Assembly: GCA_029210625.1 (NCBI GenBank)
Contig: JARGFU010000001.1
Coordinates: forward strand, 261,806-325,805
Reading direction: 5' to 3'
Origin: Deltaproteobacteria bacterium
GTDB taxonomy: Bacteria > Myxococcota > Myxococcia > SLRQ01
DNA length: 64,000 nucleotides
Below, in pieces: positions 1 to 50,193 of the stretch. The stretch's first letter is position 1. Every line of letters begins with the position of its first letter. A model generated the notes under the pieces. That model made no database searches. It saw nothing but the letters and a program-made list of their open reading frames with translations, and was not told the DNA's origin. The position numbers were made by a program, and so were the translations under genes.

Positions 1-2
1 TC

Positions 3-281
3 CTGGGGATCGACCGCTCCCTCGCGGCGCGCTTCTCCTTCCTGCTCTCCATCCCCGCCATCCTGGGCGCGCTGGTGCTGCACCTGAAGGACGGCGTGGG
101 CGCGCTCGAGGCCGGGGCCGGCGTCTTCCTGGCGGGCTTCCTCGCCGCCGCGATCAGCGGCTACCTCGCCCTGCGGCTCCTGCTGGTCCTGGTCGACCGG
201 GGCCGCTTCGGCGTCTTCGCCTACTACCTCTGGCCCCTGGGCCTGGCGGTGCTGGGATGGGCACTCGCGGGCGGGTAGGCG
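3..281 (+). CDS. uppP: undecaprenyl-diphosphatase (UppP/BacA), C-terminal fragment; the gene starts upstream of the window
   Basis: Frame-3 translation from base 3 reads LGIDRSLAARFSFLLSIPAILGALVLHLKDG...YYLWPLGLAVLGWALAGG. This is a hydrophobic multi-TM C-terminus typical of UppP. Stop TAG at 279-281. Confidence 0.65.
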
Positions 282-1831
282 AGCGGCGCTCGCCACCGGC
301 GGAGCGGGGACCTCGACCCCCTCGCCCGCTGCAGCCCGGCCCGGACAGCCGGAAGAACCAGGTCAGCAGCGCCATCGGCGCCGCCAAGCTCAACGGGAGG
401 TTCTACACTCCCCTCGAGGTCGCCGACGCGATGCTGGAGCGGGTGCGCTGGCCGGCCGGCGGTGGCTCCCTCCTGGACCCGGCCTGCGGCGAGGGCGTCT
501 TCCTCGAGGCGGCCCTGCGCAAGATCGCCCGCCTGCGGCTCTCCCGGGAGGATCTGGACCAGGTCTCCCTGGCGGGCTGGGATCTCGACCCGGAGGCGCT
601 GCGCGAGGCGCGGCGCGGGCTCGCGGCCACCATCGCCGGCTACGGCCTGCCCATGCTGCTGATGCCGCGCCTCCACCACCGCGACGCCCTCGAGACCCCG
701 ATCCTCCAGCCCGCCTGCGTGGTGGGGAACCCCCCCTACCTCGAGTCGAAGCGGATGCCCGAGGCGCTCAAGGCCCGGATCCGCGAGCGCTTCCCGGCCG
801 CGGCCACCGGGGCCTTCGATCTCTACGGGGCCTTCGTCGCCCTGACCCTGGAGGCCGAGCCCGAGGAGCTCTCCCTCCTCCTGCCCAACCGCTTCCTGGT
901 GACCGCCAACGCCGCGGCCCTGCGGCGGGAGCTGCAGGCCCGCTACGAGCTCGAGATCACCGACCTCTCCCGGGAGCGGGTCTTCGGGGACGCCGCGGTC
1001 TACCCGGTGGTGATCCACGGCCGGCGACGGAAGGCCCGCGCGCGCGCGGCGCCCGAGGCGCGCTCTCGCGATCGGCGCGAGGCGGTGCTGCCGATCCTCC
1101 CTCCCCCGGGCCCGGCCCGCGAGCTCTTCCGGCGCCTGCGCGACGACGAGACGCTGCCGCGCCTCGCCGACGCCCTCGAGATCCGCTGGACGGTCTCCTT
1201 TCACCGCGCGGGCCTGCGCGACGCCTTCGTCTCCCCGCCCGAGGCCGGCCACCCCGCGAGCCCCCACGCCCGCCCCTTCCTCGGGGGCCAGCGCTTCTCC
1301 GGGAACCGCGAGGTGGAGCCCTGCCGGATCGCCTGGCGCGGCGCCCACATCGACTACGACGAGGCGCGGGCCCGGGCGGCGAAGAACCCCCTGCCCCCGC
1401 TCGGCCTCTTCGAGGGGCCCGCCCTGGTGATCTGTCAGAACGCCCGCCGCCTGCGCTGCGCGGTCGACACCGAGGGCCACGTGCTGAAGGACACCTTCCT
1501 CCACGGGCGCCCGCGCGGCGGCGGCGTGCGCGGGTTGAAGTGGCTGGCCCTCGTGCTGCAATCGGACCTGATGCACTTCTTCTACGAGCACCTCTGGGGC
1601 GGAACCCGGAAGGCGGGCGGCCACCTCCACTTCCTCGGCCGCACCCTCGAGGGCCTGCCCCTGCCCCCCGGGAAGCCCCCCGCCGGGGTCGAGGCGCTCT
1701 ACCGGCGCATCGGAGAGGGCGACCAGGCGGCCAGGGCTCGGGCCGAGGCGCTGGTGCGCGCCGCCTACGGCGTGACCGCCACCGAGGAGGCCGCCCTGGC
1801 CGCCTACCCCTTCCCTCCCCCGGGGGCGTGA
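257..1831 (+). CDS. gamma-class N6-adenine DNA methyltransferase (TaqI/Eco57I-like) with a C-terminal target-recognition region; no restriction partner seen, so apparently orphan. Start codon uncertain.
   Basis: Motif X GRFYTPLEVADAM, motif I LLDPACGEGVFL and motif IV VVGNPPYLES occur in the order X-I-IV, which defines the gamma class. A ~270-aa C-terminal TRD-like region follows. Only ATG 257 lies upstream of motif X. Confidence 0.7.
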   Translation: MGTRGRVGERRSPPAERGPRPPRPLQPGPDSRKNQVSSAIGAAKLNGRFYTPLEVADAMLERVRWPAGGGSLLDPACGEGVFLEAALRKIARLRLSREDLDQVSLAGWDLDPEALREARRGLAATIAGYGLPMLLMPRLHHRDALETPILQPACVVGNPPYLESKRMPEALKARIRERFPAAATGAFDLYGAFVALTLEAEPEELSLLLPNRFLVTANAAALRRELQARYELEITDLSRERVFGDAAVYPVVIHGRRRKARARAAPEARSRDRREAVLPILPPPGPARELFRRLRDDETLPRLADALEIRWTVSFHRAGLRDAFVSPPEAGHPASPHARPFLGGQRFSGNREVEPCRIAWRGAHIDYDEARARAAKNPLPPLGLFEGPALVICQNARRLRCAVDTEGHVLKDTFLHGRPRGGGVRGLKWLALVLQSDLMHFFYEHLWGGTRKAGGHLHFLGRTLEGLPLPPGKPPAGVEALYRRIGEGDQAARARAEALVRAAYGVTATEEAALAAYPFPPPGA

Positions 1832-7664: not shown

Positions 7665-7741
7665 GCCCCTGATCCTGCGCCGGTGGCGGCCGAGATCAAG
7701 CCGTGTCCCCTCGTGTCGCACCCCCGAGGCATACTCCACCC

Positions 7742-8509
7742 ATGCTTGGCGCCATCGCTGGAGACGTCGTCGGCTCGATCCACGAGCACGCCCGGACCAA
7801 GACCCGAGACTTCCCCCTCTTCGTCGAGGCCTGCACCTTCACCGACGACACGGTGCTGACGGTCGCCGTCGCCCGGGCGATCCTCGAGGGCACTGCCTAT
7901 CGGGACGAGGTGCTCCGGCTCGGGCGGGAGCACCCCGGCGCGGGCTACGGGGGCAGCTTCCGCCGCTGGCTCCGGGAAGAGGACCCGCAGCCCTACGGCT
8001 CCTGGGGCAATGGCTCGGCGATGCGGGTGAGCCCGGTGGGGCTGGCCTTCACCGACGAGGCGAGCGTGCTGCGCGAGGCCGAGAAGAGCGCGGCGATCAC
8101 CCACGACCACCCCGAGGGGATCAAGGGCGCCCAGGCGGTGGCGCTCGCCGTCTTCCTCGCCCGGCAGGGCGCGTCGAAGGAGGAGATCCGGCTGCGGATC
8201 TCCGGGGACTTCGGCCACGACCTCACGCGCAGCGTCGACGAGATCCGGCCGGGCTACCGCTTCGACGTCAGCTGCCAGGGGAGCGTCCCCGAGGCGATCC
8301 TCTCCTTCCTCGAGGCCGACGACCTCGAGGGCACCCTGCGCAACGCCATCTCCCTGGGCGGCGACGCCGACACCCTCGCGGCCATCGCCGGCGGCATCGC
8401 CGAGGCCTTCTGGGGCGGCCTGCCCCGGGCGGATCACCACCAGTTGAGGACGTCCTCGGCGAAGCCGAGGCGGCCCTCGGCGTCGTGGAGGCGCCAGGGT
8501 CTCAGGTAG
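7742..8509 (+). CDS. ADP-ribosylglycohydrolase family protein; the C-terminus looks atypical or truncated
   Basis: The ARH N-terminus MLGAIAGDVVGS and the metal-site motifs TFTDDTVLT, GNGSAMRVSPV and SLGGDADTLAAIAGGIAEAFWG are present. The usual last ~35 aa are replaced by a low-complexity tail that overlaps the converging minus-strand gene. Confidence 0.7.
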   Translation: MLGAIAGDVVGSIHEHARTKTRDFPLFVEACTFTDDTVLTVAVARAILEGTAYRDEVLRLGREHPGAGYGGSFRRWLREEDPQPYGSWGNGSAMRVSPVGLAFTDEASVLREAEKSAAITHDHPEGIKGAQAVALAVFLARQGASKEEIRLRISGDFGHDLTRSVDEIRPGYRFDVSCQGSVPEAILSFLEADDLEGTLRNAISLGGDADTLAAIAGGIAEAFWGGLPRADHHQLRTSSAKPRRPSASWRRQGLR

Positions 8510-8878
8510 TCGTCACGATCGAAGTCGAAGACCACCTCGCCCAGCTTGTGCGCCCGCCCCTCGAAGAGGAGCAGGTTCTCGCTGGCCGGGCCGCGATCGC
8601 TGAAGCCGTAGCCGAGGTTCCAGCCGATGGGGCGCCCCTCGTGGAGGCCCGAGGCCGAGGCCCAGGTAGCCCAGATCCGCCACGGTGAGGGTGAGGCCGA
8701 TCCCGCCCTCCTGGGAGAGGACGGCGTAGTAGTCCCACTCCTTGATCCGGTGCCAGCCGGCCCGGATCGCGGCGCGCCCGTAGCGCCAGAAGGGGCGGGT
8801 GGCCCACCCCGCGCGGGTGAGGGTGCCGTCGGGCTGCAGCAGGTCGAGGGGCTCGGTGATCCGGAGCTGCCCGGTCAT
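8441..8878 (-). pseudogene. frameshifted remnant of a conserved hypothetical (DUF2804-like) gene
   Basis: The first ~75 codons read cleanly (MTGQLRITEPLDLLQPDGTLTRAGWATRPFWRYG...IKEWDYYAVLSQEGGIGLTLTVADLGYLG). The sensible continuation (LHEGRPIGWNLGYGFSDRGPASENLLLFEGRAHKLGEVVFDFDRDDYLRPWRLHDAEGRLGFAEDVLNWW, stop ~8441) lies in another frame, so there is a 1-nt frameshift near 8660-8680. The family call is tentative. Confidence 0.4.
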
Positions 8879-28046: not shown

Positions 28047-30470
28047 CTAGCGCAGCTTCTCCACCAGGCGCGGCGCGATCTTCGAGACCTCGGCCGCGAA
28101 GGTGTCCTGGAGCGTGAAGGGATCGTCACCGGCGCCGTCGACCTTCACGGTCTCCAGGATCTCTCCGGTCTCGACGTGCACGAAGCGGGAGAGCACCCGC
28201 AGCTTGCCGCCGAAGCTCTGGAAGCTGCCGACCACCACCACCTCCGAGGAGAAGAACTTCCCGATGGGCACCCGGTGCTCGGGGTCGTACCAGGAGGTCT
28301 GGTAGTCCTGCAGCACCTCCTTGGGCGCGTCGAGCTGAGGCTTCTCGTAGAGGTGGAGCTCCTCGTGGGCCCCGAAGTCGGTCATCACCTGCTCTGCGAG
28401 CGCGTCGGCGAGGAAGGCGAAGTCTCCCGTCCCCCCGAGATCCTTGAAGGGGACGACGATGACGCTGATCGGGCCGGTGCGGGGGACCTCCGCCTCGGGC
28501 TCCTTCTTCGGCGCCCCTCCGGCGGCGCCTCCTTCGGAGGAAGGGGGCGTGGCCGCGGCGGTGGCGGCGACCCCGGGATCGATGGGCTCCTCCCAGCTGC
28601 GCCAGGCCTGGCGAACCCAGAACTGGAGGGTGGCGACCAGCACCGCGCCGAGGCCCGCCAGGAGCCACTTCTGCCGGTACCAGGGCACCTCGGGGGCGGC
28701 GAAGTCGGGGTGCGCCGCGGGCAGAGAGGTCGAGGTCCCCCCGGCGGTGCGGGTGGCCCCCTCTCCCTTGCGGGCGAGCGCCGGCGGCAGGGCCGAGCGG
28801 GGCTCGCCGTAGAGCTGGTAGCGGGCGAAGGAGAGGCTCTTCGGATCGGCCTCGACCAGGCGCAGCTTCGCCAGGCGCACCGCCTCGCCGTAGCGCTCGC
28901 CGGCGAGCATGGCCTCCCAGAAGCGCAGGGCGAAGCGCAGCGCGTCGGCGTCGCGCACCGGCCCGGTCGGGCCGAGGTAGTGGCGCACCCCCGAGAGGAG
29001 GAGCGCCGAGGCCAGGCCCCGCTCGCGCTCCACCCCGCCCCGCCACTCGCCCTGGCCGCCGCTGTGGCAGCTGTTGGCGAAGACCAGGCTCGGGGGGCGC
29101 TCGCCGCAGGCCTCGACGATCTCCCGGGCGCCGACCACTCCGTCGGCCATGGCGAGGCCCCGGGCGCCCTCCTGCCAGCGCACGTGGCCGGCGAAGTGCA
29201 TCACCCGCACCCCGGAGAGCGCGCCGAGGAGATCGGCGCGGGTGACGGGCCCCGTGAGGTGGACCACCTCTCCGCCGAAGCCCTCGTGGAGCAGCCCGGC
29301 GACGGCGCCTCCCTCCTCCCGGGCGGAGGGGAGATCGCCGCAGGGATCGGCGACGATCAGGGCGGCGCCCTCCGCCTCGGCCGCGGTCCCCGGGCCGGCG
29401 CTGCCGGTCGCCGAGGTGGCGATCACCCGGCCGACGGCGAAGCGCAGCCCGAGGAAGGTGCGGCCGTCGTGGAGGAGCTCCCAGGGGACGTCGGCGAAGG
29501 CCTCGTCCACCTGCAGGCGCAGGAAGCCGCGCTCGGTGGTCTCCAGCCGCGCCCGCACGCTCGCCGGCAGGGCCCCGTTCCAGAGCAGCTCCCCCAGGGT
29601 GCGGACCTTGGAGGCGTAGCTCGAGGCGTTGCCGCCGAGGAAGGCGTCGAAGCGGCGCAGGATCTTGTCGGCGTCGGCCCGGCCCCAGCTGCCCTCGGCG
29701 AAGGTGCGCACCGGCCCCTTGTCCTGCTCCCCGTCCATCACCGCGGCCTTCAGGCCCCTGCCCCCCTCCATCAGGTCGAGGACGAGCAGGGGCGGCAGCG
29801 CCTGGGTGCTCCCGGTGATCTCGGGGGTGGCGGGGGCGGCCTCGCGAGGCCCGGGGTCGAGGCGCCGGGCCGCCGGCGTGCCCTCCCCCCAGTGCAGGGC
29901 CATCACCGGCACCAGCTCGGCCTTGCCCTTGAGGGGGACCCCCCCGCAGGGCTCGGCCTGCACGCTGCCCGCCGGGAGCGCCTCGAAGAGCTTCGCCGAG
30001 ATCAGCACCTCGTCCGCCTGCCCCTTGGCCTCGATCCGCGCGGCGGTGTTCACCGCGTCCCCGAAGACGTCTCCGTCGGCGAGCATCACCGCCCCCAGGT
30101 GAACGCCGATGCGGATGTGGATCGCGTCGGCCTCGGGGTGAGCCGCGCGATCCTCGCGCAGGACCTGCTGCATGCGGGCCGCGCAGGCCACGCCCATCGC
30201 GGGCGCCTCGAAGACCGCCATGATGGCGTCGCCGATCGTCTTCACGATCCGGCCCTGGTGCTCCTCGACCAGGGGGAAGAGCAGGTCGTTGTGGCGCTGC
30301 ACGAAGGCCAGGCCCTCGATGTCCCCCTTGCGCTCGAAGAGCTCGGTGGAGCCGACGATGTCGGTGAAGAGGATGACCCGCTCCCCCCGGTGCCGCGCCT
30401 CGAGGGCGCGATCGATGCGTTGCCGCTCCTCGAGCAGCGCCTGCAGGTCGTCGTCCTTCTTCCCCGTCAT
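28047..30470 (-). CDS. one-component transmembrane signalling protein: class III adenylate/guanylate cyclase, CHAT (caspase-like) protease domain, TM helix, periplasmic CsgG/TolB_N-like domain
   Basis: Cyclase motifs ILFTDIVGSTELF, KTIGDAIMAVF, GVHLGAVM and NTAARIE. CHAT domain with the His/Cys dyad (VMHFAGHV...VFANSCHSG). TM helix WLLAGLGAVLVATLQFWV. C-terminal VIVVPFKDLGG...VVVGSFQSFGGKLRVLSRFVHVETG. Start placed at MTGKKDDD (30470); the upstream part of the long ORF is overlapped by glgP. Confidence 0.8.
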   Translation of the reverse strand: MTGKKDDDLQALLEERQRIDRALEARHRGERVILFTDIVGSTELFERKGDIEGLAFVQRHNDLLFPLVEEHQGRIVKTIGDAIMAVFEAPAMGVACAARMQQVLREDRAAHPEADAIHIRIGVHLGAVMLADGDVFGDAVNTAARIEAKGQADEVLISAKLFEALPAGSVQAEPCGGVPLKGKAELVPVMALHWGEGTPAARRLDPGPREAAPATPEITGSTQALPPLLVLDLMEGGRGLKAAVMDGEQDKGPVRTFAEGSWGRADADKILRRFDAFLGGNASSYASKVRTLGELLWNGALPASVRARLETTERGFLRLQVDEAFADVPWELLHDGRTFLGLRFAVGRVIATSATGSAGPGTAAEAEGAALIVADPCGDLPSAREEGGAVAGLLHEGFGGEVVHLTGPVTRADLLGALSGVRVMHFAGHVRWQEGARGLAMADGVVGAREIVEACGERPPSLVFANSCHSGGQGEWRGGVERERGLASALLLSGVRHYLGPTGPVRDADALRFALRFWEAMLAGERYGEAVRLAKLRLVEADPKSLSFARYQLYGEPRSALPPALARKGEGATRTAGGTSTSLPAAHPDFAAPEVPWYRQKWLLAGLGAVLVATLQFWVRQAWRSWEEPIDPGVAATAAATPPSSEGGAAGGAPKKEPEAEVPRTGPISVIVVPFKDLGGTGDFAFLADALAEQVMTDFGAHEELHLYEKPQLDAPKEVLQDYQTSWYDPEHRVPIGKFFSSEVVVVGSFQSFGGKLRVLSRFVHVETGEILETVKVDGAGDDPFTLQDTFAAEVSKIAPRLVEKLR

Positions 30471-30593
30471 GTCAGCTCTCGCAGCATAGCGCAGTGCGCC
30501 ACGGCAGGGCCCCTTTCGTTCCCGTCCGAGTGGGTGTACTTCCCGGCCCTCGAAGTCGCCGAACGACCCCTCCTCTTCCAAGGGAGCCTCGCC

Positions 30594-32684
30594 ATGACCG
30601 GCAGCACGACCGAGATCGTCCAGCGGATGCACGAGCTGGCCCGCAACTTCTGGTGGGCCTGGGAGCCGGAGATCTCCGATCTCTTCCGGGACCTCGACCC
30701 CGAGCTCTGGTCGGAGGTGAACCACAACCCGATCCTGCTGCTCAAGCGCCTCGCCCCCGAGGTCATCGCCGACCGGGCCCAGCGGCGCACCATCGAGAGC
30801 CGCGTGGTCTACGCCCTGCGGCGCCTCGAGGAGTACCTCTCCGGTGAGGGCTCCTACGGGCACGAGCACGCCGCCTCCATCCTCGGCCGCCCGGTGGCCT
30901 ACTTCTCGGCCGAGTTCGGCATCCACGAGTCCCTGCCGGTCTACGCCGGCGGCCTCGGCGTGCTGGCGGGCGACCACCTCAAGGCCTCCTCCGACCTGGG
31001 GATCCCCATCGTCGGCGTCGGCCTCTTCTACGCGGAAGGCTACTTCCGTCAGCACCTCGACGAGACCGGCTACCAGCAGGAGGCCTACGGCGAGATCGAC
31101 GTGGAGAGCCTGCCGATCCACCGGGCCCAGACCCCCGACGGCGAGAACCTGCGGGTGACCGTCGACACCGCCCAGGGGCCACTCCACGCCGAGATCTGGA
31201 AGGCCCCGGTCGGGCGCAACACGCTCCTGCTCCTAGACTCGAACGTCGAGGGCAACACGCCCGAGAACCGCTCGCTGACCGCCCGCCTCTACTCGGGCGA
31301 TCAGTCCCTGCGCCTGCGCCAGGAGATCCTCCTGGGCATCGGGGGGCACCGCGCCCTGGTGGCCCTGGGCATCCACCCCAGCGTCATCCACATGAACGAG
31401 GGCCACAGCGCCCTGGCGACCCTCGAGGCCATGCGGGTGCGGGTGAAGGAGGACGGCTGCTCCTTCGCCGAGGCCCTGCGCGAGGTCTCGCAGATGTCGG
31501 TCTTCACCACCCACACCCCGGTGCCCGCCGGCCACGATCGCTTCAGCCCCGAGCTGGTCGAGCAGCACCTGGGCAAGTTCCGGGAGGGGTGCGGCTGCAG
31601 CCTGCAGGACTTCCTCGCCCTCGGCCGGGTGAACCCCGCCGACCCCAGCGAGTCCTTCTGCATGACCGTGGTGGGCCTGAAGACCACCCGGCAGGCCAAC
31701 GGCGTCTCGTCGCTCCACGGCCACGTCTCCCGCCAGATGTGGCAGGAGCTCTGGCCCGACCGCCCGGAGCAGGAGATCCCCATCGGCCACGTCACCAACG
31801 GCGTGCACGTCTCGACCTGGATCGCCCCTCAGCTCCTGCGGATCTACCAGCGCCACCTGCCCCAGGACTTCGAGCATCGCCTCTGGCAGCGCGAGGCCTG
31901 GGCCCCGGTCGCGCAGATCGACGACGGGGAGCTCTGGGAAGGCCACCAGATCATGCGCAACCGGCTGGTCGACTTCGCCCGCAACCGGACCGGCCGGCCG
32001 GGCATCCTCGACCCCTCCGCCCTGACCCTCGGCTTCGCCCGGCGCTTCGCCACCTACAAGCGCGCGGTGCTCATGCTCTCGGACATCGAGCGCCTCGAGC
32101 GCCTGCTCTGCGACCCCGAGCGCCCGGTGCAGATCGTCTTCGCCGGCAAGGCCCACCCCCACGACGAGCCGGGCAAGGCCTTCATCCGCCGCATCCACGA
32201 GCTCTCCCACGACCCCCGCTTCGACGGGAAGATCGTCTTCCTCGAGAACTACGATCTGCGGGTCGGCCGCGCGCTGGTGCGGGGCGTCGACGCCTGGGTG
32301 AACAACCCCCGCCGCCCCCTGGAGGCCTGCGGCACCAGCGGCCAGAAGGTGGTCCTCAACGGCGGCCTCAACATCTCGGTGCTCGACGGCTGGTGGGCCG
32401 AGGCCTACGACGGCACCAACGGCTTCGCCATCGGCGGGACGCGGGTGCACCGCGACGTCGACGTCCAGGACGAGCGGGACGCCGAGAGCCTCTACCGGGT
32501 CCTCGAGGAGGAGGTCGTCCCCCTCTTCTACGATCGCGGCTCCGACGGCGTGCCCCACGCCTGGGTCTCCCGGATGAAGCGCGGCCTGACCACCTGCGCC
32601 TGGCGCTTCTCCGCCAGCCGGATGGTCCGGGACTACCTGCACCAGGCCTACCTCCCGGCGGCCGGCGCGGACTGGGTCGGCTAG
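30594..32684 (+). CDS. glgP: alpha-glucan (glycogen/maltodextrin) phosphorylase, GT35
   Basis: The N-terminus ELARNFWWAWEPE is typical of the bacterial GlgP type. It carries GLGVLAGDHLKASSDLGIP, the PLP-site region and EACGTSGQKVVLNGGLNISVLDGWW. Confidence 0.9.
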   Translation: MTGSTTEIVQRMHELARNFWWAWEPEISDLFRDLDPELWSEVNHNPILLLKRLAPEVIADRAQRRTIESRVVYALRRLEEYLSGEGSYGHEHAASILGRPVAYFSAEFGIHESLPVYAGGLGVLAGDHLKASSDLGIPIVGVGLFYAEGYFRQHLDETGYQQEAYGEIDVESLPIHRAQTPDGENLRVTVDTAQGPLHAEIWKAPVGRNTLLLLDSNVEGNTPENRSLTARLYSGDQSLRLRQEILLGIGGHRALVALGIHPSVIHMNEGHSALATLEAMRVRVKEDGCSFAEALREVSQMSVFTTHTPVPAGHDRFSPELVEQHLGKFREGCGCSLQDFLALGRVNPADPSESFCMTVVGLKTTRQANGVSSLHGHVSRQMWQELWPDRPEQEIPIGHVTNGVHVSTWIAPQLLRIYQRHLPQDFEHRLWQREAWAPVAQIDDGELWEGHQIMRNRLVDFARNRTGRPGILDPSALTLGFARRFATYKRAVLMLSDIERLERLLCDPERPVQIVFAGKAHPHDEPGKAFIRRIHELSHDPRFDGKIVFLENYDLRVGRALVRGVDAWVNNPRRPLEACGTSGQKVVLNGGLNISVLDGWWAEAYDGTNGFAIGGTRVHRDVDVQDERDAESLYRVLEEEVVPLFYDRGSDGVPHAWVSRMKRGLTTCAWRFSASRMVRDYLHQAYLPAAGADWVG

Positions 32685-36715: not shown

Positions 36716-37299
36716 TGGGCCTCTTCGACTGGTTCAAGAAGAGGAAGGCGCCCCCCGCGGCGGCGCCGGCCCCCTGGCCCGGCCCCGACCCGCGGCCCAC
36801 CGGCGCCCTGCCGGCGCAGGAGCAGCTGGCCTTCGGCCACGAGGTGGAGGGTGAGCGGCGCGTCCACTGGGTCTCGATCGAACACGAGCTGACCCGGGAC
36901 GCGCTCGAGGCCCGGCTCGCCGAGGTCCCGGGGCTGACCCTGCCCCCCGAGGAGGAGCCCCCCTCCTTCGACCTGAGCCCCGGCGCCGGGCCGGACGCCC
37001 TGCGCCTCTTCACCGAGCACCACGCTGCCCTCATGCGGGCCATCGAGGCCCACGACCGGGAGCGGGGCGAGCCCGGGGACGATCTGCTCGCGCCGCCCCC
37101 CGGCGGGCCGCGCCGGATGTGGCTGGTGAACGGCGAGGGGCGCGAGCTGGAGGTGGTCTACCGGAGTGAGGGGGCCACCCTCACCGTGATCTTCACCCTC
37201 GGCGAACCCGGCTACCGCTTCGAGTGGGAGGACGGCTTCTGCTTCGAGCTGCCCGGCGATCCTCCCCGCGTGCACCGCTGGTCGCTACGCGAGGGCTGA
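36716..37299 (+). CDS. hypothetical protein
   Basis: ATG overlaps the upstream stop (TGATG). No recognisable family. The C-terminal beta-rich part (RMWLVNGEGRELEVVYRSEGATLTVIFTLGEPGYRFEWEDGFCFELPG) looks globular. Confidence 0.4.
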
Positions 37300-38245
37300 C
37301 CGCTCCTCCTCGGTGCGGTGGAAGAGGGCGTAGTCGATCATCAGGCGGCCGTCGGGCAGCTCGCTGATCACGTCCACGAAGCGGTGACCGGCCTTGAGGT
37401 CCTCCAGCCGGTAGATGTGGCGGACGTAGGTGGTCTGCCCGTAGGTGCCGTCGTGGCCCTTGAGCGTCGCGATGAAGCCCATCACCCCGCTGGCGGGATC
37501 CTCGAGGTCGATCCCGAAGAGGGGGCTCGCCTCGTCGATCTCGTGCATCACCGACCAGGTCATCGTGAAGAGGGGCGAGCGCGAGCGCGAGAGCTCGAGG
37601 GGGTGGATGCGCCGGAAGTGGTGGCCCTCGGGGGAGAGCTCGTCCCGCAGGAGCGAGACGCTCACGCTGGCGTCGACGACCTCGTTGCCCCGGGCGTTGC
37701 CCACCCGGAACATCAGCACGTCCTTCCCGTTCATCCGGGTGAGGACGATCGGCTCGGAGAAGAGCCAGCCAGAGGCCGGCGCCCAGGGTGAAGACCCCAC
37801 CCCAGTAACGGGCGAAGTCCCGGGAGTCGGGGGTCTGCTTCCAGGCCCGCCCGTACATCACGGCCACCAGCCCCCAGGCCGCGGCCGCGGCGAGGGCGAA
37901 GGGGGCGTGCCGGCCGGCCATGGCCGCAGGGGCGGAGATCGCCATCCCGCCCACCGCGAACATCTGGAGGAGGACCAGGGTGCGGTGGAGGAAGTCCTCG
38001 ATGTTGAAGCGGTTCCCGTAGAAGGTGAAGCCGGTCCAGGAGACCCAGAGGGGCACGAAGGCCCCGACGAAGGCCACGAAGCCCCCGACCGAGACGTCGG
38101 CCGAGAGGCCGTTGCCCAGCTGGATGAAGGCGGCGACGAAGATCAGGTCGTAGAAGAGCTCGAGCCAGGTCGGCTTCTTCTCCAGGCCGAGGGCCGGGGA
38201 GTGCAGGAGAGGAGCGTGGAACCAGCGGCTGCGCATGAGGGGCAA
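37285..38245 (-). pseudogene. frameshifted chimeric gene: LtrA-like (low temperature requirement A) membrane N-terminal domain (~170 aa, 38245..~37770), then an inward-rectifier K+ channel cytoplasmic (Kir C-terminal, IRK_C-like) domain in the adjacent frame (~37800..37285)
   Basis: The N-terminus, KKPTWLELFYDLIFVAAFIQL...PLWVSWTGFTFYGNRFNIEDFLHRTLVLLQMFAVGGM, matches LtrA (compare Listeria LtrA WFELFYDLVFVAAI...IWWAWVGQTLFVNRFGEDTFHHRLLMLVQMGFVL). After about 37770 this frame becomes low-complexity. The neighbouring frame encodes FSEPIVLTRMNGKDVLMFRVGNARGNEVVDASVSV...FTMTWSVMHEIDEASPLFG...GHRFVDV...IDYALFHRTEE, collinear with the Kir2.1/KirBac cytoplasmic domain (LVFS..AVI..RDGKLCLMWRVGNLR...IVHEIDEDSPLY...GHRF...VDYSRFHKT). 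Confidence 0.55.
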
Positions 38246-38301
38246 GGTACTCCGGGGCCGCCATCGAGCCAGCGCGGCCCTTCGGCTAGAATGGTGGAGG
38301 C

Positions 38302-38697
38302 ATGGAGGACTTCCCCGAGCCGATCGAGGCGCGCGACGTGGAGACCCTGCGGGAGGCGCTCGCCGGGGGCGCCCGAGCGCAGTACCTCCTCTTCTGGGGC
38401 CACACCCCCCGCCAGGCGGGCGTGGCCGACAAGGCCTGCCTCTCCCAGTGGTACCCCTCCCCCTTCGTCGTCGATGGCCTGACCTACGCCACCGCCGAGC
38501 ACTTCATGATGGCCGAGAAGGCCCGGCTCTTCGACGACGGGATCACCCTGGCGAAGATCCACGAGGCCAGCAGCCCGGCGGAGGCCAGGGCCCTCGGCCT
38601 GGCGGCCGACGACCCCGACGCCCAGCGGCCCGAGGCCTGGCCGGGCCAGAACCTCCTGGGCTTCGCGCTGATGGAAGTCCGGGCCAGGCTCACATGA
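38302..38697 (+). CDS. NADAR-domain protein (YbiA/DUF1768 family N-glycosidase / ADP-ribose-processing hydrolase)
   Basis: NADAR signature FWGHTPRQAGVADKACLSQWYPSPFVVDGLTYATAEHFMMAEKARLFDD. Its stop overlaps the start of the downstream ARH gene (ATGA at 38694). Confidence 0.7.
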   Translation: MEDFPEPIEARDVETLREALAGGARAQYLLFWGHTPRQAGVADKACLSQWYPSPFVVDGLTYATAEHFMMAEKARLFDDGITLAKIHEASSPAEARALGLAADDPDAQRPEAWPGQNLLGFALMEVRARLT

Positions 38698-39611
38698 GCG
38701 CCGAACGCACCGACCGGATCAAGGGTGGCCTCCTCGGCCTGGCCCTGGGGGACGCCTTCGGGGCTCCCCACGAGGGCGGCCCCATCGAGCGCCTGCTCTG
38801 GCGGGCCATCGGCCGCAGCGAGGGAAAGCAGCGCTTCACCGACGACACCACGATGTCCCTCGACCTCGCCGAGTCCCTCGTCGAGCGCGGCGCGCTCGAT
38901 CTCGACGACCTCGCCCGGCGCTTCGGAGCGAGCTACCGCTGGTCGCGGGGCTACGGCCCGGGGGCGGCGAAGCTGCTCAAGCGGGTGCGCGGCGGAATGG
39001 ACTGGCGGGAGGCCAGCCGCTCGGTCTACCCGGAGGGCTCCTTCGGCAACGGCGGCGCGATGCGGGCGCCGGTGATCGGGCTGGCCTTCGCCGCCCGGCC
39101 CGAGGCGCTCGCCGACGCCGCCAGCGAGCAGGCCAGCATCACCCACGCCCACCCCCTGGCGAGGGAGGGCGCGGTGATGATCGCCGCCGCCACCGCCGCC
39201 GCGCTCGAGGGCGTCGATGCCGAGGCCCTCCTGGACGCCGCGACGGCGCCCTGCGAGCAGGCCCCCTTCACGATGCGGCTGGAGATCGCCCGCGGCTGGC
39301 TGCGGCTGTCGCAGGGGAACGAGCCCTCGCCGCGGGAGGTGCGGGAGAGCCTGGGCAACGGCATCGCGGCGGTGGACTCCTGCGTCACCGCCCTCTACCT
39401 GGCCGGCCGCTTCCTGCACCTCGACTTCGCCGACCTCCTTCGCTTCGCGGCCCTCCTCGGCGGCGACGTCGACACCATCGGCGCCATGGCCGGCGCCCTC
39501 TGGGGCGCCCACAACGGAGCGGGGGAGCTGCCGGGGGAGCTGCTCGGCCTGCTCGAGCAGCGCGAGCGCCTCGAGGCCGCCGCCGCCGGCCTCGCCGCCA
39601 CCTTCGCCTGA
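38694..39611 (+). CDS. ADP-ribosylglycohydrolase (DraG/ARH3-like), full length
   Basis: ARH N-terminus IKGGLLGLALGDAFGAPHEG, metal-site motifs DDTTMSL and GNGGAMRAPVIGLAF, and C-terminal GGDVDTIGAMAGALWGAHNG. Confidence 0.8.
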   Translation: MSAERTDRIKGGLLGLALGDAFGAPHEGGPIERLLWRAIGRSEGKQRFTDDTTMSLDLAESLVERGALDLDDLARRFGASYRWSRGYGPGAAKLLKRVRGGMDWREASRSVYPEGSFGNGGAMRAPVIGLAFAARPEALADAASEQASITHAHPLAREGAVMIAAATAAALEGVDAEALLDAATAPCEQAPFTMRLEIARGWLRLSQGNEPSPREVRESLGNGIAAVDSCVTALYLAGRFLHLDFADLLRFAALLGGDVDTIGAMAGALWGAHNGAGELPGELLGLLEQRERLEAAAAGLAATFA

Positions 39612-39649
39612 AGACCCGGCCGCGCGGTGGACGCGAGGCGCGAGGTGCG

Positions 39650-41388
39650 GGATGCTCCCACGCACCTTGTCCGCTCTGCTCCACGCCCCGCTGCCTCGCC
39701 TGACGGTCCTCGCCCTGGCCCTGCTGCCAGCGCTCCCGGCGCTGGCCTCCGCCGCGGGCGCGCCCGCGGAGCCGCCCTTCCCCCTGCCCGAGGGGCGGGT
39801 CGTGGAGACCCAGATGAACGTCTGGGAGGACCGCACCTACACGGTGGAGCTCTTCCTCAAGCGCAAGCTCTGCCCGGCCCTCAAGGAGCACGGCGCGGCG
39901 GCCGCGGCGCTCTTCGACGAGGAAGCCTCGCTAGTCCTGCCCACGGAGACCGAGCAGCCCCTGAAGGTGCACCTCCTGGGGCTCGAGGGTGGAACGCTGG
40001 CGCCCGGCCCCGAGCAGACCCTGGGGCGGGAGGGCGTGGGCGCGGCCCTCGAGGGTTGGCTCGGGCCCCACGCCGAGCGCAGCCGCTGCTCGGTGGGCTT
40101 CCACACCTCGATCATCGTCCGGGGAGAGCCCTTCCTGGCCCAGGGTCGCTTCCACCTCACCTTCGGCAGCCGGGACGCCCGGGGCAGGCCGATCATGGAC
40201 AGCGTCGAGGCCAGCTACGAGCTGCGCGGTAGCCGCAAGTCCCCCCGGATCTCCCGGCTCCACCTCGAGCAGGTCTACCGGATCCGGGCCGAGGCGCCGC
40301 GCTTCGTGGACGTCACCGAGGCGGCCGGGCTTCCGCCGGTCTTCTCCGAGCGGAAGAGCAACTTCTCCCTCGACGGCCCCGACCGCGGCAGCATCGCCAT
40401 CGACGACGTGAACGGCGACGGCTGGCTGGACCTCTACATCGGCCGCGCCGACGCGAACCTGCTCTTCCTCGCGAAGGGCGACGGGACCTACGAGGAGAAG
40501 GCGAAGAGCTACGGCCTGGGCGACACCGGCGCCGCGCGCTCGATGCACTTCGTCGATCTCGACGGTGACGGGGACGAGGACCTGGTGATCGCCAACGCGG
40601 TCCATCGCAAGGGCCGCGGGGGCATCATGGTCTACCAGCGTGAGGGCGAGCGCTTCACCCTGGTGCAGAAGATCGACCTCGGCCAGTCCAACCACTTCCG
40701 CACCATGGCGACGGGTGACGTCGACGGAGACGGTGATCTCGATCTGCACGTCTCCAACTACGGGCGCTCCGACGTCCGCGGCTCCGAGAGCCTCCTCTTC
40801 GATCCCACCGGGCTTCCCGACCTCCTCCTGATCAACGAGACGAAGGACGGAAAGATCCAGCTCGTGAACCGCGCGAAGGAGTGGGGGGTCGCCGACCGCT
40901 TCTGGACCTACGGCACGGCCCTGGCCGACCTGGACGACGATGGCCGCCTCGACCTCGCCATCGCCGACGACTTCGGCCCCAAGCGCCTCTACCGGAACAC
41001 CGGCGAGGGCCGCTTCGAGGATCTCTCCGAGGCCTCCGGCGTCGGCTTCGAGCGCGCCTCGGGCATGGGCGTGGACGTGGCCGACATCAACGGAGACGGC
41101 CACCTCGACCTCTACTTCGCCAACATGCACTCCAACGCCGGCACTCGCCTCGGCAACTTCCTCCCCCGGAAGGACGACGTCTCCGGCCGCATCCACCGCG
41201 CGGCCGCGGGCAACACCCTCTGGCTGGGGAAGGGCGACATGAAGTTCCAGGAGGTCGGCGTGCCCTGGGGCGTCGCCGACGGGGGATGGGCCTGGGGCAT
41301 CCGCTTCGTCGACCTCGATCTCCACGGGGGCTCCGAGCTCGCCTCCCCCTGCGGCTTCCTGACGGGACCCGAGCTCGACGACGGGTGA
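39650..41388 (+). CDS. secreted FG-GAP/VCBS repeat protein (CRTAC1/ASPIC-like, N-terminal part), ending at a TGA that lies in frame with the next ORF
   Basis: Signal peptide LTVLALALLPALPALASA. Multiple FG-GAP/integrin-like calcium-binding repeats follow (IDDVNGDGWLDLYIG, VDLDGDGDEDLVIAN, GDVDGDGDLDLHVSN, LADLDDDGRLDLAIADDFG, ADINGDGHLDLYFAN). Confidence 0.75.
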
Positions 41389-47748: not shown

Positions 47749-48372
47749 ATGCTCGACGCCCACCTGCGGCACCTCGCCCTCCTCGCCCTCCCGGCGCTCC
47801 TCCTCGTCACCGCCTGCCCCCGGCGGGTGCCGATCCCCGACCCCACGCCGGCCACGGGCGAGTGGTACGAGACGCAGGCGGACGAGGGCTTCTCCTTCTC
47901 CATGCCCGATCCGCCCGAGGTGCAGCGCCAGAACGTCCCCACCGAGGCCGGGCCGCTGCCGATCGTGATGTACCTGCTGGCCGACGACGCCCGGGGCGCC
48001 GCCTACAACGTCACCAGCGCCCGCTACCCGGAGGGGTTCATGGACACCCGGGATCCCGCCGAGGTCCTGGCTGGCGCCCGGGACGGAGCCGCCTCCAACA
48101 TCTCGGGCGAGATCCTCGAGCAGCGCGACCTGCAGCTCTTCGCCCCCGACGGCTCCATCGCCCCGGGCCTCGAGCTGGTGATGCGCACGCCCCAGGAGAT
48201 GCTCTACCGGGGGCGGATCTTCGTGGTGGGCCCGCAGCTGATCCAGCTCTCCTACGTCACCACCGAGAAGGGCGGCTCGGAGGAGGCCTACCGGCACTTC
48301 GTCGAGTCCTTCATCCTGACCCCCTCGAGCCCCGCCGCGCCCTCGCCGGACGACGGGCCCACCGAGGAGTGA
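47749..48372 (+). CDS. lipoprotein, hypothetical
   Basis: Signal peptide plus lipobox LLLVTAC. No recognisable family. Confidence 0.45.
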   Translation: MLDAHLRHLALLALPALLLVTACPRRVPIPDPTPATGEWYETQADEGFSFSMPDPPEVQRQNVPTEAGPLPIVMYLLADDARGAAYNVTSARYPEGFMDTRDPAEVLAGARDGAASNISGEILEQRDLQLFAPDGSIAPGLELVMRTPQEMLYRGRIFVVGPQLIQLSYVTTEKGGSEEAYRHFVESFILTPSSPAAPSPDDGPTEE

Positions 48373-49649
48373 GCGCCACGCCTCCCGCGCCGAAGGACCG
48401 CGGCGTCCTGGGCTGGGCCCTCTACGACTGGGCCAACTCGGCCTACGCCACCGTGGTGGTGGCCGGCTTCTTCCCCGTCTTCCTGAAGACCTACTGGGCC
48501 GCCGAGCTCCCGGTCACCCGGTCGACCTTCTACCTGGGGCTGGCCACCTCGGCGGCCTCCCTGGCGGTCGCGATCCTGGCGCCGCTGGTGGGCGCGCTGG
48601 CCGACCGCGCGGGCTGGCACAAGCGCGCCCTCATCGTCTACGCGGCGACCGGCGTCGTCTGCACCCTGGGGCTGGCGCTGGCCGGACGCGGGCAGTGGGA
48701 GCTGGCCCTCCTCCTCTACGCCCTCGGCACCCTGGGCTGGTCCGGCGCCAACGCGCTCTACGACGCCCTGCTCACCTCCGTCGCGGACGAGCCGGACTTC
48801 GATCGGGTCTCGGCCCTGGGCTTCTCCCTGGGCTACCTCGGCGGCGGGATCCTCTTCGCCGGCTGCATCAGCCTGACCCTCTACCCCGGGCTCCTCGGCC
48901 TGCCCGGCAAGGCCGAGGCGGTGCGGGTGGGCTTCGCCGCCTGCGCGATCTGGTGGGCGATCTTCTCGATCCCCCTCCTGCGCTGGGTGCGGCAGCCGGC
49001 GCCCACGGCCGAGGCGGGGGAGGCCTCCCTGCGCGCCGCCCTCGCCCGCCTGCTGCAGACCCTGAAGACCCTGCGCAGCCTGAAGACCGCGGCCCTCTTC
49101 CTCGTCGCCTACTGGCTCTACATCGACGGGGTCGACACCATCATCCGGATGGCGGTCGACTACGGCCTGGCCATCGGCCTGCCGGACACCGCGCTGATCA
49201 CCGCGCTCCTGCTCACCCAGTTCGTGGGCTTCCCGGCGGCCATCGCCTTCGGCGCCCTGGGCAAGCGGATCGGCGCCAAGGGCGGGGTGCTCCTGGCCCT
49301 GCTCGTCTACCTCGGGGTCTGCGCCTTCGCCCACGGCATGGAGACCGCCACCGAGTTCTACGTGCTCGCGGCCACCGTCGGCCTGGTGCAGGGTGGCGTC
49401 CAGGCCCTCTCCCGCTCCCTCTTCGCCCGGCTGATCCCCGCCGAGCAGAGCGCCGAGCTCTTCGGCTTCTACAACATGGTCGGCAAGTACGCGGCCGTCA
49501 TCGGCCCCACCCTGATGGGCTGGGTGGCGGTGGCCACCGGCGACCCCCGGGCCGGGATCCTGGCGGTGGCGGGACTGATCGTCCTCGGCGGCGGTATGCT
49601 CGTCCTCATCCGCATCCCGAGGACCCCCACCGCCGAGGCCACACCATGA
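48369..49649 (+). CDS. MFS transporter, UMF1 family; GTG start
   Basis: UMF1-type N-terminus GWALYDWANSAY followed by ~12 TM helices. The GTG start overlaps the upstream stop (GTGA). Confidence 0.75.
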   Translation: MSATPPAPKDRGVLGWALYDWANSAYATVVVAGFFPVFLKTYWAAELPVTRSTFYLGLATSAASLAVAILAPLVGALADRAGWHKRALIVYAATGVVCTLGLALAGRGQWELALLLYALGTLGWSGANALYDALLTSVADEPDFDRVSALGFSLGYLGGGILFAGCISLTLYPGLLGLPGKAEAVRVGFAACAIWWAIFSIPLLRWVRQPAPTAEAGEASLRAALARLLQTLKTLRSLKTAALFLVAYWLYIDGVDTIIRMAVDYGLAIGLPDTALITALLLTQFVGFPAAIAFGALGKRIGAKGGVLLALLVYLGVCAFAHGMETATEFYVLAATVGLVQGGVQALSRSLFARLIPAEQSAELFGFYNMVGKYAAVIGPTLMGWVAVATGDPRAGILAVAGLIVLGGGMLVLIRIPRTPTAEATP

Positions 49650-50116
49650 TCTCTCTCGACCGGCGCCTCCTGAAGCGTGCCTTCTTCCGGCTGGTCAGCG
49701 TCTACCCGCCCTACCTCGGGGCGGGCGTCCGGCTGACCCACGTCGCCGAGGACCTCCTCACCATGGAGGTCGAGATGAAGCTCACGCCCCTCAACCGCAA
49801 CTACGTCGGCACCCACTTCGGTGGCTCCCTCTACAGCATGTGCGATCCCTTCTTCATGCTGATCCTGATGGAGGCGCTCGGAGAGGGCTTCGTCGTCTGG
49901 GATCAGGAGGCGACCATCCGCTTCAAGAAGCCCGGGCGCGGCAAGGTGCGGGCCCGCTTCTCGGTGAGCCCGGCCGAGGTGGAGTCGATCCGGCACGACG
50001 CGATCAAGCACCGCAAGACCTCTCCGGTCTTCCGGACGAAGGTCACCGACGAGCAGGGTGAGGTCGTCGCCGAGATCGAGAAGACCCTCTACGTCCGGCA
50101 GCGCGAGGCGGCCTGA
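49646..50116 (+). CDS. DUF4442/YiiD_C-like hot-dog fold (thioesterase-like) protein
   Basis: Hot-dog fold-like motif NYVGTHFGGSLYSMCDPFFMLILMEALG. ATGA overlap with the MFS transporter gene suggests co-transcription. Confidence 0.55.
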   Translation: MISLDRRLLKRAFFRLVSVYPPYLGAGVRLTHVAEDLLTMEVEMKLTPLNRNYVGTHFGGSLYSMCDPFFMLILMEALGEGFVVWDQEATIRFKKPGRGKVRARFSVSPAEVESIRHDAIKHRKTSPVFRTKVTDEQGEVVAEIEKTLYVRQREAA

Positions 50117-50193
50117 AACGGCTCCTGTTTCCGGGGGGTTGAGCGCCCTGGGGTGGATCCCCGCGGTGTAGGCCCGGGTAGTCCGGTGTCGCA

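Follow-up and report, generated by a model that had tools for sequence, protein, structure and literature searches.

The upstream gene of the locus described here has its closest described relatives in the YbiA family of NADAR proteins. This family includes E. coli YbiA (PDB entry 2B3W), the NADAR of P. nicotianae (PDB entry 8BAU), the members of TIGR02464 ('riboflavin biosynthesis intermediates N-glycosidase') and YbiA of C. crocatus, which is the antitoxin of YarT. In the P. nicotianae structure, ADP-ribose is contacted by E43, K50, R79, W89, R93, E125, D130 and W133 (Schuller et al. 2023, PMC11543638). Both guanine de-ADP-ribosylation and rescue from the toxin depend on the equivalents of E43, K50 and E125, and the first two correspond to E88 and K95 in the C7 NADAR of E. 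coli (PMC11543638).

For the downstream gene, the closest described relative is ARH3 (ADPRHL2/ADPRS), a eukaryotic hydrolase of ADP-ribosylserine, poly(ADP-ribose) and O-acetyl-ADP-ribose. Other members of this fold, DraG and Tri1, are bacterial ADP-ribosylarginine hydrolases whose cognate ARTs are DraT and Tre1, and an nrtR-draG cluster is known in Streptomyces (PMC2330246). The phosphate-end ADP-ribose made by KptA is removed by ARH-like and macrodomain enzymes, not by NADARs (Lu et al. 2025). A role of stand-alone ADP-ribosylhydrolases as guards against foreign ART toxins has already been discussed (PMC11125620, PMC11833690).

We analyzed a 64-kb stretch of DNA (the window) in which a NADAR gene directly precedes an ARH gene. 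The locus is quite probably an intact ARH3-like hydrolase gene beside a NADAR remnant broken by deletion, a lineage-specific juxtaposition rather than a dedicated two-enzyme module.

The two genes and the ARH3-like hydrolase

The window has a G+C content of ~73%, and long spurious ORFs are abundant in it. The NADAR ORF has a GC3 of 0.94, and both ORFs of the locus (Table 1) show strong codon-position bias. They are deposited as consecutive NCBI records, MDF1561651.1 (NADAR) and MDF1561652.1 (ARH), on a 530,391-bp contig of a MAG. The NADAR ORF matches its Pfam family with 77 bits (E 2.5e-21, cut-off 35.1) and the ARH ORF with 198.7 bits (E 2.1e-58, profile positions 1–286 of 287); both matches are far above chance level. 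The overlap of the NADAR stop with the ARH start has the geometry of translational coupling, and the position of the ARH start matches the N-termini of homologues in the alignment. The sequence-only reading had described two ORFs of the NADAR and ARH families coupled through ATGA, and the sequence and the Pfam matches agree on this.

Table 1. Positions of the features discussed, counted from the first letter of the window
Feature	Position	Strand	Basis
NADAR (YbiA-family) gene, putative remnant	38302..38697	+	131 aa; Pfam PF08719
ARH3-like ADP-ribosylglycohydrolase	38694..39611	+	305 aa, full length; Pfam PF03747
ATGA overlap, NADAR stop / ARH start	38694..38697	+	direct sequence reading; stop TGA 38695-38697, start ATG 38694-38696
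Putative deletion junction, TCGGCC within the L98-G99-L100 codons	38594..38599	+	homologue gene comparison
ARH paralog	7703..8509		Pfam profile 3-280 of 287

The downstream gene encodes a full-length, stand-alone bacterial ARH3-like ADP-ribosylglycohydrolase. The predicted metal-binding and catalytic residues E27, T49-D50-D51-T52, D258, D260 and T261 are present and are invariant in an alignment of 24 homologues. The motifs GDxxGxxxE, TDDT and GGDxDT align to their ARH3 counterparts, which carry E41, T76-D77-D78 and D314/D316/T317 in the human enzyme. Against the PDB, the family profile finds ARH3 over its full length with an E-value of 5.6e-53, then DraG with 2.5e-25, and a phmmer search with the single protein gives 1e-30 for ARH3 and 6.4e-13 for Tri1. 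The fold agrees with this assignment. The AF2 model has a pLDDT of 96.1, and its best 46 Foldseek matches in the PDB are all ARH3, with TM-scores of 0.84–0.88 and E-values of about 1e-17. DraG follows with a TM-score of 0.71 at an E-value of about 1e-11 (DraG, Thermus and Methanococcus proteins together, 0.71–0.77). Homologues at about 60% identity occur in many bacterial phyla.

Three other identities were considered and rejected. The protein scores 75.7 on the DraG model TIGR02662, which has a cut-off of 337.05, and 53.5 on the Tri1 model NF041672, which has a cut-off of 490; for ARH1 the family profile gives 8e-21, to be compared with the ARH3 value above. No DraT, nif or Tre1 genes are found near the window ARH. 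The protein is predicted to be a Mg2+-dependent hydrolase of O-linked ADP-ribose, cleaving the C1'' O-glycosidic bond. By analogy to ARH3 and to ARH-like enzymes of bacteria, O-acetyl-ADP-ribose, Ser-ADP-ribose and ADP-ribose on the phosphate ends of nucleic acids are candidate substrates.

A second ARH gene in the window had been described as C-terminally truncated. The paralog is present and its last 30 residues look unrelated to the ARH family; its truncation, however, is unclear, given the extent of its match to the Pfam profile (Table 1). A DUF2804 fragment at 8513-8878 abuts this paralog.

Extent and origin of the gap in the NADAR gene

At 131 aa the NADAR could be read as a small intact enzyme, but comparison with its family speaks against this. 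PF08719 aligns to it in two separate stretches, residues 31–99 covering profile positions 2–74 of 163, and alignments to 10 and then to 53 homologues show a single clean gap of 58 columns between ...EARAL-G and L-AADDP... of the window protein. The homologues are 177–225 aa long, all 119 among the matches listed, and the 131-aa form is seen once. None of 80 metagenomic NADAR genes gives a split two-piece match to a full-length NADAR profile. A complete domain occupies ~150–160 profile positions with five core helices and two small sheets, and the window NADAR falls short of it. On this family comparison, the window NADAR appears to be an in-frame deletion derivative of a gene of ~189 aa. Its TIGR02464 score is 73.3, just below the cut-off of 73.7, while the intact full-length homologues score 159–173 bits; since they do, the ancestral gene would have been an ordinary YbiA-family NADAR.

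In the family consensus the missing block reads GRxVRGFDxxxWxxxRFxxVVRGNxAKFxQxxxLRxFLLxTGxRVLVEASPxDRIWGI and contains 21 family columns with at least 90% conservation (GR, V, W, R, V, N, KF, L, T, LVEASP, D and WGI). Still present in the window protein are the FWGH N-terminal extension, the NLLGFALMEVR helix at the C-terminus, and E66 and K73, two residues of the segment TAEHFMMAEKA that do not vary across the 53-homologue alignment. To locate the ligand contacts, the family profile was aligned to P. nicotianae NADAR and to E. coli YbiA; the 8BAU residues were counted along the printed alignment with a chain numbering offset of 2. The deleted block holds the equivalents of R79, W89, R93, E125, D130 and W133, six of the eight ADP-ribose contacts, and the equivalents of E43 and K50 alone survive, as E66 and K73. 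E125 is the catalytic glutamate of the last β-strand and defines the YbiA subfamily; it is deleted in the window copy. Because the 58 lost residues hold six of the eight contacts including this glutamate, the 131-aa NADAR is almost certainly catalytically inactive. The structural model points the same way: AF2, run on an alignment of 54 sequences, gives a mean pLDDT of 69, with residues 110–131 below 50, and only 65 columns of the model superpose on YbiA (2B3W) or 8BAU in Foldseek, with TM-scores of 0.38–0.39.

At the junction the window reads GCC CTC GGC CTG GCG, and the 174 bp that code for GR...WGI are absent there. The corresponding sites in homologues, LG/R and GIG/L (the cut is marked by a slash), lie 58 codons apart in nearly all of 71 full-length homologue genes, these being the genes in which both flanking motifs could be located. 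Several GC-rich homologues (L105, L109 and L132) have TCGGCC at both sites, 174 bp apart, and the homologue sites CTCGGCC/GC and ATCGGCC/TG, when joined, give the window junction sequence. Because the repeat occurs at both homologue sites and joining them reproduces the window sequence, we infer that a microhomology-mediated deletion of 174 bp is the simplest origin of the gap.

At the 44 retained NADAR columns with at least 90% conservation the window protein has 1 mismatch, which is also the median count among intact homologues. There is no extra decay, suggesting that the deletion is recent, or else that the remaining part of NADAR is still constrained; an open ORF, good codon bias and absence of decay are equally expected under selection on the shortened protein. 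The contig index contains no exact match to either window protein, and the nearest homologues are only ~65% identical. No sister genome carrying the gene in intact form was found, and no fetched locus has another gene in common with the window.

Gene neighborhood and conservation of the pair

Among the likely coding ORFs scanned by Pfam, which represent most of the 64-kb window, there is no ART domain, so that the earlier statement that no ADP-ribosyltransferase lies nearby holds for these ORFs; positions 48372-50172 (no ORF passing the length and GC3 filters) and some low-confidence ORFs in the 0–20 kb region fall outside the scan, and novel ARTs of small size, for example YarT, are possibly not represented in Pfam. 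A six-frame scan of the window with purpose-built HMMs finds no KptA, Macro or NrtR. A toxin–antitoxin pair of the DarTG1 or YarT type was considered and rejected: there is no adjacent ART gene, and an ARH gene lies downstream instead.

Upstream of NADAR is a divergent LtrA fragment, and downstream is ARH. The immediate neighbors include an OYE-type flavin reductase, a DUF2199 protein, a hypothetical protein and the LtrA/Kir scar, together with FG-GAP/ASPIC lipoproteins and an enoyl-CoA hydratase. In the scar, at ~37750-37765, the LtrA fragment is joined out of frame to the C-terminal domain of a Kir protein. In PADLOC, the NADAR family matches the generic candidate model PDC-M42C, and there is no match for ARH, the ARH paralog or the neighbors. 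A promoter and terminator consensus scan of positions 37900-39900 returned nothing and is uninformative at 73% GC.

The pair is not a conserved unit, and its juxtaposition is lineage-specific. None of 79 loci with an ARH homologue, from different species, has an adjacent NADAR; in two of them a NADAR lies 5.5–6 kb away. The four closest ARH homologues looked up (63–66% identity, on long contigs) also have no adjacent NADAR, and their neighbors are unrelated genes or Macro genes. ORF clustering within 4 kb at 47 loci finds no conserved partner of the ARH homologues; what recurs is ARH itself with its alternative frames and, in a few loci, a Macro gene. Approached from the other side, the 80 metagenomic loci that encode a full-length NADAR of the window clade include 2 with an ARH-family gene in the vicinity, arranged as Macro-NADAR-ARH in L145 and as Macro-ARH-transposase (IS)-NADAR in L125. 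These two ARHs score 57 and 82 bits on a profile of the window type, compared with 330–550 bits for ARH homologues of at least ~45% identity (L001-L040), and therefore belong to another subfamily. Because an ARH-family gene is close by in both, the NADAR and ARH families as such do have a functional link, though a weak one. A metabolic role had also been considered for the pair: the NADAR homologues do group firmly with YbiA and TIGR02464, whereas no conserved metabolic context is found for the pair.

Separately, the homologues of both genes keep recurrent company. KptA/Tpt1, an RNA 2'-phosphotransferase with the ART fold, is near the NADARs of the window clade in 9 of 80 loci, mostly just downstream on the same strand, and the regulator NrtR in 6 of 80. 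A Macro gene accompanies the ARH3-like family at 4 of 79 loci; in L007 and in L160 it is the direct upstream neighbor. Marinicella meishanensis (L037) carries a NadV-NADAR pair and, 5.5 kb away from it, the operon NrtR-DUF4291-hyp-KptA-Macro-ARH-Macro. The juxtaposition in the window is consistent with a loose clustering of NAD and ADP-ribose genes (NADAR, ARH, Macro, KptA and NrtR).

Alternative readings and comparison with known systems

The sequence-only reading had proposed that NADAR and ARH work together in detoxification or salvage. As a standing detoxification or immunity module against foreign ART toxins or phage, the pair would combine a NADAR that reverses base N-linked ADP-ribosylation with an ARH that reverses protein-linked ADP-ribosylation. 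Two ADP-ribose-removing families coupled by ATGA would fit such a module, as would the lack of a cognate toxin nearby, since stand-alone hydrolases have been proposed as guards against exogenous ARTs (PMC11125620, PMC11833690). The PADLOC candidate model matched by the NADAR family points in the same direction, but ARH has no PADLOC match, and the neighbors are unrelated housekeeping and envelope genes, not a defense island. The NADAR itself is without the strand of the catalytic glutamate and five further ADP-ribose contacts. Adjacency is also absent at all 79 ARH loci and at the four closest homologues looked up. With 58 residues missing from NADAR and the pair absent from relatives, a working module, for detoxification or for salvage, is not supported; the standing-module proposal is largely refuted by the deletion and must be regarded as highly improbable.

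The gap itself could be read in two further ways. If it had arisen in assembly or binning, or if a minority variant had been assembled, the organism would carry an undamaged NADAR-ARH3-like operon, which as a small functioning cluster of ADP-ribose hydrolases would be comparable to Macro-NADAR-ARH in L145. The sequence does come from a MAG, there is a short repeat at the junction, the retained NADAR sequence shows no decay, and clusters of NADAR and ARH occur elsewhere. A 6-bp repeat alone, however, is far too short for assembly collapse, the contig is 530 kb long, and the window contains two similar gene scars (LtrA/Kir and DUF2804), so that an artefact is unlikely. These other scars suggest real deletions in the genome, or else a generally poor assembly. 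Alternatively, the shortened NADAR may have been kept, either as a non-catalytic partner of ARH that binds ADP-ribose or nucleic acid, or as a translated leader to the ARH start, whose reading frame would be under selection through a dependence of ARH expression on translational coupling. In either case a dead enzyme would have found a new use within an operon for ADP-ribose processing. The deletion preserves the frame and the ORF is intact up to ATGA, the conserved positions carry no excess substitutions, and the equivalents of E43 and K50 are present. But a third of all deletions would keep the frame by chance, and a recent event explains the absence of decay equally well; the form is seen in one genome only, and its residues 110–131 are modelled with pLDDT <50. 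We consider retention of the shortened protein very unlikely.

We prefer the reading in which an intact hydrolase gene follows a broken NADAR gene. The upstream gene would formerly have been a normal YbiA-family NADAR N-glycosidase of ~189 aa. A deletion of 174 bp between the two TCGGCC microhomologies would have removed 58 codons in frame, among them those for three residues that bind phosphate, for the strand with the catalytic glutamate and for the D-x-x-W motif, leaving an open but catalytically dead ORF of 131 aa. Because the deletion is in frame, ribosomes would still reach the ATGA junction, and translation of ARH need not be disturbed. Several points count against this reading: the MAG origin of the sequence, with which an assembly collapse at the repeat is possible, the lack of a sister genome, the open ORF with its good codon bias and absence of decay, the two NADAR loci that have an ARH-family gene in the vicinity, and an ARH substrate predicted from similarity, at ~31% identity to ARH3.

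The significance of the locus goes little beyond annotation. MDF1561651.1, annotated as a NADAR family protein, is without its active-site half and should not be counted as functional or as a 'minimal NADAR'. The ARH3-like family is a large, uncharacterized bacterial group that recurs beside Macro, KptA and NrtR, and is a reasonable target for substrate profiling. The recurrent pairing of NADAR with KptA/Tpt1 in the full-length clade bears on the role of non-DarT NADARs.

Compared with the known systems, the window NADAR is closest to the YbiA family. It is homologous to this family over its retained two thirds and keeps the E43 and K50 equivalents, and its close full-length homologues carry LVEASPxDxxWGIG with the subfamily glutamate and pass TIGR02464. 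It differs in the 58 absent residues, in having no rib genes nearby and in the downstream gene, which is an ARH and not an ART. With the DarT1-NADAR system (DarTG1) it has the NADAR superfamily in common. However, its family is of the YbiA type (glutamate in the homologues) and not of the BC4488 type (aspartate), there is no adjacent DarT at the window locus, and the catalytic strand is deleted. Among proteins of known structure, ARH3 is the closest relative of the window ARH by both sequence and fold, with conserved motifs, although the window protein is only ~31% identical to it, ~40 residues shorter, without the ARH3 inserts, and bacterial. DraG and Tri1 have the ARH fold and the metal-site motifs in common with the window ARH, which nevertheless scores far below their equivalog cut-offs. 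In NrtR-linked NAD and ADP-ribose clusters, homologues of the two window genes turn up repeatedly, each on its own. The window, in contrast, lacks NrtR, KptA, Macro and NAD-salvage genes, and consists at this locus of two hydrolase genes only, one of them broken.

Possible deletion scars around the NADAR and ARH genes

The LtrA-like gene adjoining the NADAR gene in divergent orientation matches only profile positions 3–144 of 356. It is joined, with a one-frame shift, to a KirBac-type K+ channel remnant in which the cytoplasmic C-terminal domain is complete (IRK_C 2–158 of 174) but the pore and the transmembrane part are missing. This composite looks like a second deletion scar, next to the in-frame deletion within the NADAR remnant. 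At the other ARH gene of the window, the second ARH paralog, the final 30 residues form an Arg/Pro/Ser-rich tail unlike the family, and only 4 bp separate its stop from the end of a convergent DUF2804 gene fragment. The boundary between these two convergent genes may be a third deletion. Three such scars within 64 kb suggest a deletion-prone genome or else assembly problems.

Features of the window and of loci with NADAR or ARH homologues
Feature	Location	Strand	Remarks
Second ARH paralog	7703..8509	+	Pfam 3–280 of 287, domain nearly complete
DUF2804 gene fragment	8513..8878	-	profile positions 3–69 of 339 only
LtrA-like/KirBac-type composite	37193..38245	-	profile matches; junction ~37750–37765
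Giant ORF, >4,609 aa	50172..63998 and beyond	+	Ig-like repeats
Compact NAD/ADP-ribose island	L037 3928–13146		Marinicella meishanensis NZ_JAIOUV010000007.1
Macro-ARH-glyoxalase-Macro-ARH3-like cluster	L160/L161 602–4906		JGI Ga0373636_0002007, Ga0373633_0000136
NADAR clade context, example	L150 1069–1656		
NADAR clade context, further examples	L134, L096, L103, L124, L131		

Annotation of the remnant and other genes of the window

The 131-aa remnant (NCBI MDF1561651.1, 38302..38697) is publicly named 'NADAR family protein', without being flagged as a pseudogene or as partial. PDC-M42C, a candidate defence model of PADLOC, is generic for NADAR and also matches YbiA-family homologues of the ordinary kind, such as the close full-length NADAR homologue P0012 (143.6 bits). 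Its match is not evidence for a defence role.

The giant ORF contains seven Big_13 domains together with Big_3_3, CarboxypepD_reg and SdrD_B, and its region shows strong negative GC skew. It extends past the window end, so that its C-terminus, and hence any effector domain, lies outside. Elsewhere, one protein of ~1,060 aa (28047..31232, minus strand) carries both a catalytic domain of the adenylate/guanylate cyclase type and a caspase-like CHAT protease domain, and an Eco57I/TaqI_C-type N6-adenine DNA methylase, a type IIG-like restriction-modification enzyme (2..1831, plus strand), is cut by the window start.

ADP-ribose gene clusters and NADAR-KptA pairing

Some homologues of the ARH3-like gene occur in clusters of ADP-ribose genes. 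The homologue closest by identity (66%) lies in the L160/L161 cluster, where four ADP-ribose hydrolase genes fall within 4.3 kb; the first ARH (319 aa) belongs to another subfamily, and NADAR is absent from this cluster. The Marinicella island carries NADAR and NadV (NAMPT) on one strand and, on the opposite strand, the operon NrtR-DUF4291-hypothetical-KptA-Macro-ARH3-like-Macro-alpha/beta hydrolase-TelA.

Among the 80 metagenomic loci (L080–L159) with full-length NADARs of the window clade, the type with an 'FWGH' N-terminal extension, the NrtR regulator is found nearby in six. The RNA 2'-phosphotransferase KptA/Tpt1, which has the ART fold, is near the NADAR in nine, mostly just downstream on the same strand. 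This pairing may inform the function of non-DarT NADARs more than the window does.
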